NCBI RefSeq assembly: GCF_054482595.1
Contig: NZ_CM137008.1
Reading direction: 5' to 3' (one strand)
DNA: 64,000 bases
The first letter of the stretch is position 1. Each line of letters opens with the position of its first letter. The translations under genes and the position numbers were made by a program. The notes under the pieces were generated by a model. It was not told the origin of the DNA. It worked only from the letters and a program-made list of their open reading frames with translations, and made no database searches. Of this stretch, positions 52,742-54,318 are shown piece by piece.

Positions 52742-52879
52742 ATCCCTTCTCCACACCGTTGCCGCGTTGCGCATTCTACTTTGCGAGTCTGCTCCAGAAA
52801 ATAAATCAAAGTCAGATCAATGCGTTGTGTTTATTTAATGGGGATTTACGATGGCGGGACAGCACAGGGCTGTAACGGT

Positions 52880-53018
52880 AAAGCCCTCACCGAAGCGAGG
52901 GCTTGAAGGAGAAGGGTTATGATGCGACTTGTCATCATACTGATTGTACTGTTACTCATAAGTTTCCCAGCTTATTAACAGTCAGTCTCAGGGGAGGAGT
53001 AATCCTCCCTTACCCTTA
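52880..53018 (-). ncRNA. Sib-type antisense sRNA (antitoxin), copy 1; boundaries approximate
   Basis: Minus-strand -35 TTGACA (53053-53048), 17-bp spacer, -10 TAATTT (53030-53025); transcript would run antisense across the ibs ORF; 3' end estimated from the usual Sib length. Confidence 0.45.
52919..52978 (+). CDS. Ibs-family type I toxin, 19 aa (variant copy, Pro17)
   Basis: Read by hand: ATGATGCGACTTGTCATCATACTGATTGTACTGTTACTCATAAGTTTCCCAGCTTATTAA = MMRLVIILIVLLLISFPAY*; SD GAAGGAG upstream; below the ORF-track size cutoff. Confidence 0.75.
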   Translation: MMRLVIILIVLLLISFPAY

Positions 53019-53271
53019 CTCACTAAATTAGGTTAAAGAATCAACGATGTCAATCAGGGCGATGCGGGATGTATCGCCCTGAACCGATCATTTGATAGAC
53101 ACTTCATCGCCCACGTTTACTGCCGTAATTAATCCCTTATCCCTGCAATGTGTGTCTGTCTTACATGACGTTTTACGAGTGCGCTCGAAGAAAAAATTTA
53201 AAGGTAGATCAATGCGTTGTGCTTATTTAAAGAGAGTTTACGATGGCAGGGCAGCATGGGGCTGTAACGGT

Positions 53272-53410
53272 AAAGCCCTCACCGAAGCGAGGGCTTGAAG
53301 GAGAAGGGTTATGATGCGACTTGTCATCATACTGATTGTACTGTTACTCATAAGTTTCAGCGCTTATTAACAGTCAGTCACAGGGGAGGAGCAATCCTCC
53401 CTTACCCTTA
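53272..53410 (-). ncRNA. sibC: SibC-type antisense sRNA (antitoxin), copy 2; boundaries approximate
   Basis: Same promoter-like elements as copy 1, shifted by 392 bp (-35 at 53445-53440, -10 at 53422-53417); serA-ygfA intergenic position corresponds to K-12 sibC/rygC. Confidence 0.45.
53311..53370 (+). CDS. ibsC: Ibs-family type I toxin, 19 aa (IbsC-like, Ser17)
   Basis: Read by hand: MMRLVIILIVLLLISFSAY*; same SD and context as copy 1; matches my recollection of K-12 IbsC. Confidence 0.75.
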   Translation: MMRLVIILIVLLLISFSAY

Positions 53411-53470
53411 CTCACTAAATTAGGTTAAAGAATCAACGATGTCAATCAGGGCGATGCAGGTGTGTCGCCC

Positions 53471-54019
53471 TCACCACTCCCAGACTTTCGACGGTGTAAC
53501 CACCGCAGGAAGAGGGATATCCCACTCTTCAACGGGGAGTTTTTCCACCAACTGACAATCATGCGCATAACCCACCGGTTGCATTTTATAGTGCTGCCAG
53601 TTTTGTAAGGTCCGATCGTAAAAACCTCCGCCCATTCCCAGGCGCTGACCGTACTCATCAAAGGCGACCAGCGGTGTGATCAACACGTCTAATCGGGAAA
53701 GGGGTAGCACGTCACGCACATCCAGTTTTGGCTCATGGATCTTCAACCTGTTCATCACCAGTTCACTTTGCGGATGGTAATTCAGGAACAGCAAATTACC
53801 GGCACTAAAGGGATGCAAAACTGGAAGATATACGCGCTTACCGGCGCGCCAGAGTTGTTCTATAAGCGGCTGGGTGTCGAGTTCTCCATCAAAAGAGAGG
53901 AATACAGCGACCGTATGTGCCATCACCACCGGGGGATAAGTCATCATCCGGGTAGCGGCTTGTTGACCCATTTCCTGCTGTTGTTCCGGCGTTAACGTAC
54001 GACGACGTTGCCGAATCAT
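53471..54019 (-). CDS. ygfA: 5-formyltetrahydrofolate cyclo-ligase family protein
   Basis: ORF 53471..54217; start assumed at the internal Met (MIRQRRRTLTPEQQQEMGQQAATRMM...) giving 182 aa; an alternative in-frame ATG at 54073 gives 200 aa; the ORF N-terminal extension overlaps ssrS. Confidence 0.85.
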   Translation of the reverse strand: MIRQRRRTLTPEQQQEMGQQAATRMMTYPPVVMAHTVAVFLSFDGELDTQPLIEQLWRAGKRVYLPVLHPFSAGNLLFLNYHPQSELVMNRLKIHEPKLDVRDVLPLSRLDVLITPLVAFDEYGQRLGMGGGFYDRTLQNWQHYKMQPVGYAHDCQLVEKLPVEEWDIPLPAVVTPSKVWEW

Positions 54020-54082
54020 TTTGCGGATTTCTTGTCGGGATAATGTCAGTGGGAGTTCTGGTAGTTGCGTCATGGCTGGTGC

Positions 54083-54266
54083 CAGATAAGAAGGGAATCT
54101 CCGAGATGCCGCCGCAGGCTGTAACCCTTGAACCCTTGGTTCAAGGTGAATGTGTCGTCGCAGTTTTAAGGCTTCTCGGACGGACCGAGCATGCTCACCA
54201 ACCGCGGAGCGCCACATTCTTGTGGTATGAAATATCGGCTCAGGGGACTGGCCCGCTTGCGAACAT
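54083..54266 (-). ncRNA. ssrS: 6S RNA
   Basis: Minus strand reads AUUUCUCUGAGAUGUUCGCAAGCGGGCCAGUCCCCUGAGCCGAUAUUUCAUACCACAAGAAUGUGGCGCUCCGCGGUUGGUGAGCAUGCUCGGUCCGUCCGAGAAGCC...GGCAUCUCGGAGAUUCCCU, matching E. coli 6S RNA; lies between zapA and ygfA. Confidence 0.92.
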
Positions 54267-54318
54267 CTCAGAGAAATTTTGTCTTCACGGTTACTCTACC
54301 ACAGTAAACCGAAAAGTG

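Follow-up and report, generated by a model that had tools for sequence, protein, structure and literature searches.

A hairpin between fau and a SibC-type antitoxin promoter of Escherichia coli as the probable 3' stem-loop of the convergent ibs toxin mRNA

The SibC/IbsC locus and its counterpart in the window

The closest described system is the SibC/IbsC pair of E. coli K-12 (RygC, QUAD1c; sibC b4446, ibsC b4665), and a review table places SibC (t27, RygC, QUAD1c) between ygfA and serA. K-12 contains a single Sib gene at this site, which is SibC (b4446, 3056851-3056991) with ibsC antisense to it, and neither SibD nor SibE. Han et al. used AAGGGTAAGG as the 5' end of SibC, and a sigma-S ChIP-seq study reported a peak at the SibC promoter with the same transcription start site (3054873 in older coordinates) and described the regulation of SibC as complex. 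The promoter is responsive to sigma-S and ppGpp, and SibC is among the NAD-capped RNAs of a 2026 study, a cap which is added at initiation and therefore indicates that SibC is made by initiation of its own. For the paralogue sibD, a 35-bp core promoter performs like a 189-bp promoter (2026 study). On the toxin side, Han et al. mapped the 5' end of ibsC (GCAGCATGGGG) and gave a 3' end at +159 that is only a prediction based on a northern size of about 160 nt.

The stretch of DNA analysed here, a window of 64 kb, contains the corresponding region of E. coli (zapA-ssrS-fau(ygfA)-sibC/ibsC-serA) in reverse reading direction. It is 100% identical to E. coli strain XH990 and matched with at least 90% identity in 5425 of 5426 complete E. 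coli genomes. Along the minus strand, ssrS is followed by fau (ygfA) and two Sib antitoxin genes, with serA convergent on the plus strand (Table 1). The fau gene is annotated in K-12 in a 182-aa form, whose equivalent start lies at 54019, and ends in the window with the TGA at 53473-53471. The locus shares its position, its gene order and the IbsC peptide with K-12, as well as the same hairpin behind the fau stop codon; one base of the promoter spacer (A in the window, G in K-12) and one base of the SibC body differ, and the fau stop codon is TAA in K-12 versus TGA here. This codon is also variable elsewhere, being TGA in one further locus of our comparison set (L008), TAA in E. albertii and TAG in Pseudocitrobacter, where its G is the first base of the stem.

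Both Sib units score far above the Rfam RF00113 gathering score of 56 (134.6 and 138.3 bits), and both encode fully antisense a short hydrophobic ibs ORF of the 18-19-aa type. The original prediction of a Sib gene next to ygfA is borne out in this respect, although its label, Sib copy 2, is better replaced by SibC-type in K-12 nomenclature. The two tandem SibC-like units lie 392 bp apart, versus the single one of K-12, and form a direct repeat (52780-53068 / 53172-53460, 392-bp period) of 91% identity. Since the spacer between the copies (53082-53171) is found in 1857 of the 5426 complete E. coli genomes, or about one third, the two-copy state at fau-serA is a common polymorphism. The sole genome lacking a Sib unit is that of O157:H7 TR01, in which the hairpin and TTGACAT directly join the right-hand edge of the repeat. 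A general lack of the sib/ibs locus in O157:H7 was considered and discarded, as TR01 is the only such case among 5425 genomes.

Read along the minus strand, the junction between fau and the adjoining Sib gene is ...GGAGTGG TGA GGGCGA CACACCTGCA TCGCCC TGA TTGACA TCGTTGATTCTTTAACC TAATTT AGTGAGT A(+1)AGGGTAAGG. The A at 53409, 7 nt past TAATTT, is the start site of the fau-proximal SibC, as derived both from the 5' end used by Han et al. and from the 61 nt that separate the fau stop codon and the sibC +1 in K-12. Because the hexamers, their spacing and the +1 match the K-12 annotation, the primers of Han et al. and the sigma-S ChIP data, the assignment of TTGACA as the real -35 of a known SibC-type antitoxin promoter, as originally predicted, is correct, and no deviating start site emerged from these three sources. 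The predicted cluster of stop codon, GGGCGA...TCGCCC hairpin and TTGACA is present in the sequence exactly as claimed; the distance of a few nucleotides given for the -35 is accurate with regard to the hairpin (3 nt) and generous with regard to the stop codon (25 nt). Chance is no explanation for these elements, since the 64-kb window holds two matches to TTGACA-N17-TAATTT (53445-53417 and 53053-53025), where 0.01 are expected, and two to GGGCGA-N8-12-TCGCCC (53449-53470 and 53057-53079), where 0.00 are expected, each time in the Rfam Sib units. For the serA-proximal copy, the repeat register suggests a +1 at 53017 and an RNA of 52877-53017. The Rfam SIB_RNA model itself starts at the -35 (model positions 1-6 being UUGACA), and the cmscan matches include 36 nt of promoter (53445-53410 and 53053-53018) in front of the real 5' ends at 53409 and 53017; they are therefore unfit as RNA boundaries.

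Table 1. Features of the fau-Sib/Ibs region, in coordinates of the window
Feature	Position	Strand	Basis or remark
ssrS (6S RNA)	54094..54277	-	Rfam RF00013, 139.8 bits; 5' of fau on the same strand
fau (ygfA) CDS, 200-aa form	53471..54073	-	ORF list; RefSeq annotation of E. coli genomes that are identical or nearly so
Equivalent of K-12 RNA 3' end 3056785(-)	53475	+	coordinate mapping; putative in the window strain, transferred by homology
Hairpin GGGCGAUGC-AGGU-GUGUCGCCC, 9-bp stem (53449-57 with 53462-70)	53449..53470	+ (ibs strand)	sequence, folds, pair counts
-35 TTGACA of the fau-proximal SibC-like gene	53440..53445	-	3 nt past the hairpin, 25 nt past the fau stop codon
-10 TAATTT, C at -13, spacer of 17 nt	53417..53422	-	position relative to the mapped +1
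SibC-like RNA, fau-proximal, 141 nt	53269..53409	-	homology with K-12 sibC; Rfam RF00113, 134.6 bits
ibs toxin ORF MMRLVIILIVLLLISFSAY, antisense to the fau-proximal Sib	53311..53370	+	translation
Second hairpin copy GGGCGAUGC-GGGAU-GUAUCGCCC	53057..53079	+	upstream of the serA-proximal Sib promoter; no adjoining fau
Promoter TTGACA-N17-TAATTT of the serA-proximal SibC-like copy	53025..53053	-	sequence pattern; 392-bp repeat register
ibs toxin ORF MMRLVIILIVLLLISFPAY, serA-proximal copy	52919..52978	+	translation

Anatomy, copies and species range of the hairpin

The inverted repeat consists of GGGCGA (53470-53465) and TCGCCC (53454-53449) and begins directly after the fau stop codon. The minus (fau) strand forms no more than 6 bp before a C.A mismatch interrupts the stem, leaving a GC-rich helix of -9.1 kcal/mol right behind the stop codon. 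Folded in a context of 41 nt, the hairpin reaches -14.7 kcal/mol (z -1.7) on the minus strand and -16.5 kcal/mol (z -2.5) on the plus strand, so that its predicted stability on its own is only modest. On the fau strand the stem is followed by UGAUUGAC, which has 3 U in 8 positions and is not a U-tract, and a terminator scan did not call the hairpin, with neither a U-tract nor an A-tract on either side. Another terminator-like site was noted on the minus strand within the fau ORF (53629-53644, CGCCTGGGAATGGGCG followed by GAGGTTTTTA), about 160 nt before the stop codon; it belongs to the 2 terminator-like sites observed in the region versus 1.8 expected from shuffled sequences.

The second copy of the hairpin reads on the minus strand (53079-53057) as GGGCGAT-ACATCCCGC-ATCGCCC, followed by TGATTGACA, and the similarity between the two Sib units extends through the hairpin within the 392-bp repeat register. 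Because this copy precedes the serA-proximal Sib gene, where no fau is present, the hairpin is seen to travel with the Sib/Ibs unit. It is absent from the promoters of sibA, sibB, sibD and sibE of K-12, of which sibB has a 5-bp hairpin and sibD a different hairpin with a U-tract further upstream. The latter lies on the ibsD strand about 20 nt beyond the sibD -35 (L005 1215-1245; CCCUGGCC...GCCGGGGAUUUUUU) and resembles an intrinsic terminator for ibsD at a place equivalent to that of the ibsC stem-loop.

A comparison of 68 fau loci from different enterobacterial species revealed a Sib gene directly behind fau and on the same strand in 27 of them (regular-expression search), and the tested subset of these genes scored 92-140 bits with RF00113. 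The distance between the stop codon and the -35 amounts to 25-26 nt in the hairpin-bearing form, found in Escherichia, Pseudocitrobacter and one Citrobacter, and to 12-15 nt in Citrobacter, Kluyvera and Klebsiella, which have a T-rich interval and no hairpin. Exceptional values are 43 nt in a single locus of Kluyvera (L061), with an earlier TGA met by the in-frame walk, and -4 nt in Citrobacter sp. R56 (L020 2095-2120). In this Citrobacter the usual fau stop codon is lost and the ORF ends at the TGA within the -35 TTGACA. The -35 is conserved as TTGAC in 33 Sib copies of 30 loci, with TCGAC in one (L040). As judged from these sequence comparisons, the close placement of the Sib promoter behind the fau stop codon is ancient and common to Escherichia, Citrobacter, Pseudocitrobacter, Kluyvera and some Klebsiella, and it does not require the hairpin, since Citrobacter, Kluyvera and Klebsiella keep it without one. 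A Citrobacter metagenome-assembled genome (L030 2098-2200) retains a Sib-type promoter (TTGACA-N17-TACATT) behind fau, followed by unrelated sequence in which Rfam detects no Sib RNA.

Species without sib carry canonical terminators or REP-like hairpins immediately past fau, and an origin of the Escherichia hairpin from an ancestral fau terminator is therefore possible. It may then be asked whether the hairpin is a functionless relic of such a terminator (of fau or of fau/serA), or a border of a QUAD-type repeat, that was merely spread by duplication. Its absence from most Sib-bearing genera, its degeneration in Citrobacter sp. MGH106 and its retention in the sib/ibs-less strain TR01 would fit this idea. 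However, the TR01 deletion is a single and evidently recent event among 5425 genomes, the pairing persists between Escherichia and Pseudocitrobacter with bases altered on both sides, and the hairpin positions an RNA 3' end in vivo (see below), and we regard a loss of function as improbable.

The pairing itself differs between the two strands, as seen from folding nine natural hairpin variants on each of them. In every variant of Escherichia and Pseudocitrobacter, the ibs strand folds into a continuous stem of 9 bp and a loop of 4-5 nt (-14.3 to -16.8 kcal/mol), whereas A.C mismatches break up the stem of the fau strand, which has 6-7 bp (-8.7 to -12.8 kcal/mol). A count of the nine pairs across 12 distinct sequences gives 96.3% of the cells paired and a covariation score of 0.322 for the ibs strand, versus 82.4% and 0.158 for the fau strand. 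Escherichia and Pseudocitrobacter show no variation at the six outer base pairs, and three pairs are altered on both sides, for example from U-A to A-U and from C-G to U-A between these genera. The one-sided changes give G.U pairs on the ibs strand and hence A.C oppositions on the fau strand; the seventh pair of the ibs strand is U.G in the window and U-A in K-12. A metagenome scan for SibC-type promoters outside E. coli yielded only one locus, a Pseudocitrobacter-like sequence, which adds a further A-U/G.U alternation of the same type as the other one-sided changes. The asymmetry rests on about three independent events of the G.U type in the lineages that keep the hairpin, and Citrobacter L017, in which the hairpin is almost lost (-2.9 and -0.5 kcal/mol), presents the opposite strand pattern. 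Taken alone, the better conservation of pairing on the ibs strand is suggestive only; it agrees with the strand of the RNA 3' end mapped by Term-seq. The hairpin is also kept in the predicted minimum-energy fold of a 225-nt ibs RNA (-88.9 kcal/mol, z -5.8), and it is absent from the predicted fold of a 91-nt context of the fau strand.

These patterns also bear on the notion that the inverted repeat (-61 to -40 relative to +1) serves at the DNA level as a site through which a dimeric regulator acts on the SibC promoter. Such a role would be favoured by its place just before the -35, at which activators or the alpha-CTD bind, by the invariance of the six outer base pairs in each arm and by the complex regulation described for SibC. 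On the other hand, the inner arm positions vary with complementarity kept, including G.U pairs that are meaningful only in RNA, and an RNA 3' end maps just past the repeat. Moreover, the sequences upstream of the -35 are dispensable at sibD, and the other K-12 sib promoters as well as those of the Citrobacter type do without the repeat, which makes a regulator site very improbable.

RNA 3' ends and the transcript to which the hairpin belongs

Mapped RNA ends are available from the Term-seq data for MG1655 grown in LB to OD 0.4, in LB to OD 2.0 and in M63 (Adams et al., eLife 2021, supplementary file 1). On the K-12 plus strand, which is the fau strand, these include 3' ends at 3056168(+), corresponding to the end of the 6S RNA, and at 3056959(+) inside SibC, and none is listed between these two positions in the three conditions. 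This gap is weak evidence because the list is thresholded and fau is poorly expressed. On the ibsC strand, an end at 3056785(-) labelled "antisense to fau" is listed in all three conditions with an average count of about 140,000-146,000 (two sheets), compared to a minus-strand floor of about 23,000 (Adams et al., 2021). Mapping of the published 61-mer on K-12 identifies 3056785(-) as a C in the last sense codon of fau, five nt past the stem, which is followed on the ibs strand by UUACC. The bicyclomycin experiment of the same authors defines a region of Rho termination on the ibsC strand at 3056905(-) with a Rho score of 4.41, and Rho-terminated ends are usually trimmed by 3' exonucleases (Adams et al., 2021).

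Several other ends were noted in these tables. The Term-seq 3' end of SibC corresponds to +109 (3056959(+); window 53300-53301) versus the annotated +141, a further end on the ibs strand, 3056960(-), is located 4-5 nt past the antisense of the SibC terminator hairpin and 11 nt before the start codon of ibsC, and the region of Rho termination (window 53355) falls within the ibsC ORF. Taken together, they point to a toxin mRNA that is prematurely terminated or cleaved. Searches of the Adams tables for 3' ends of the ibs strand upstream of sibA, sibB, sibD and sibE returned none, which includes the U-tract hairpin upstream of sibD, and the TERMITe and SMRT-Cappable-seq supplements hold no entry for the genes of the fau/sibC/ibsC locus.

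We consider it likely that the 22-nt hairpin is part of the Sib/Ibs module and mainly represents the 3' stem-loop of the convergent ibs (toxin) transcript; on this reading, it most plausibly marks where the ibsC toxin mRNA ends, a position so far left undefined. According to the ibsC 5' end of Han et al., the fau-proximal ibs transcript would start on the plus strand at about 53251 and run antisense through the entire Sib gene and the Sib promoter. Termination, probably by Rho, would occur in the antisense of fau, followed by trimming to a 3' end at about 53475, some 5 nt past a stem-loop that would shield it from 3' exonucleases. The resulting RNA would comprise about 225 nt (53251 to 53475). 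We infer that the mapped end belongs to the ibsC mRNA and arises by Rho termination and trimming, and that the same holds for the window strain. SibC would be made from its own promoter, and the hairpin would constitute a weak obstacle at most on the fau strand. The Term-seq data stem from K-12 and do not give the 5' end of the RNA that ends at the hairpin, which could also stem from processing or represent an antisense RNA of its own. An ibs RNA of 225 nt is moreover longer than the size of about 160 nt that Han et al. cite for ibsC from a northern blot, and the lack of listed counterparts at the other four K-12 sib/ibs loci likewise speaks against this reading. An end of the ibs mRNA at the hairpin inside the 5' region of Sib was considered and rejected; the end at +159 is a prediction only.

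The original prediction had regarded the hairpin as the terminator of the ssrS-ygfA transcript, sharing its site with antitoxin initiation. In this case, or if it acted as a bidirectional terminator of fau and ibs, leakage might modulate SibC by promoter occlusion or via 5'-extended RNAs. The hairpin does begin at the first base past the fau stop codon, exactly where the species without sib have their terminators or REP-like hairpins, it is symmetric at the DNA level, and no other terminator-like site occurs on the fau strand from the fau stop codon to the Sib terminator. Moreover, convergent operons of E. coli often terminate inefficiently and overlap, as stated by Conway et al. Against this stand the missing U-tract and the silence of the terminator scan, the absence of a listed Term-seq 3' end on the fau strand, the A.C mismatches that weaken the fau-strand stem, the recurrence of the hairpin in front of the second Sib copy without any fau, and the adjacency without hairpin in Citrobacter, Kluyvera and Klebsiella. 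Likewise, most ssrS transcription is reported to be ended by Rho inside ygfA, which partly agrees with a transcript terminating far from the hairpin, and SibC originates from its own promoter, as indicated by its NAD cap and its dependence on ppGpp and sigma-S. Termination of the 6S operon at the hairpin is therefore unlikely in our view, and the proposed coupling of SibC to read-through from this operon is speculation. Given that no terminator lies between the fau stop codon and the Sib terminator, those fau transcripts that pass the hairpin would cross the sibC promoter and carry the SibC sequence, which probably applies to the minority of transcripts reaching the end of fau.

The assignment of the stem-loop to the toxin mRNA may be combined with such read-through in a joint reading, which we offer with considerable reserve. 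The fau/6S operon and SibC/IbsC would then be interlocked at the RNA level, with an ibsC mRNA of about 225 nt and fau read-through as a supply of anti-ibsC RNA. The conserved 3' stem-loop of the ibsC mRNA and the fau stop codon would overlap, and the SibC promoter would be covered in antisense by the 3' UTR of that mRNA, while terminator-less fau transcripts would read through SibC and carry the complete anti-ibsC sequence. Growth-phase control of ssrS-fau would either add antitoxin independently of the promoter or interfere with SibC initiation, and the conserved spacing of 12-26 nt from the fau stop codon to the Sib -35 would have been selected for this interlock.

Relation to described systems

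Promoter, start site and gene order of SibC belong to the standard annotation of K-12 and are already known, and the proximity of stop codon and promoter turns out to be largely ordinary, because the hairpin looks like the tail of a toxin mRNA from the opposite strand and not like a terminator of the 6S operon. What is new is confined to interpreting the published 3' end "antisense to fau" as that of the ibsC mRNA, whose stem-loop is conserved on the ibs strand.

Intrinsic or bidirectional terminators of convergent genes resemble this hairpin in being GC-rich and placed between two units, here fau and ibs, directly past a stop codon; they differ from it in that neither side of the hairpin has a U-tract or A-tract and that the 3' end is found on one strand only. 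A closer likeness is seen to Rho-terminated transcripts whose 3' ends are defined by a stem-loop (Dar and Sorek, 2018, in the summary of Adams et al., 2021). Shared features are a stable stem-loop without U-tract, an RNA end that lies a few nt beyond it, a region of Rho termination on that strand and the antisense nature of the transcript. The end in the window is assigned to this class by likeness, its dependence on Rho and exonucleases being presumed by analogy, and it is set apart from the described members by a stem-loop that overlaps the stop codon of another gene and abuts the promoter of its own antisense regulator.
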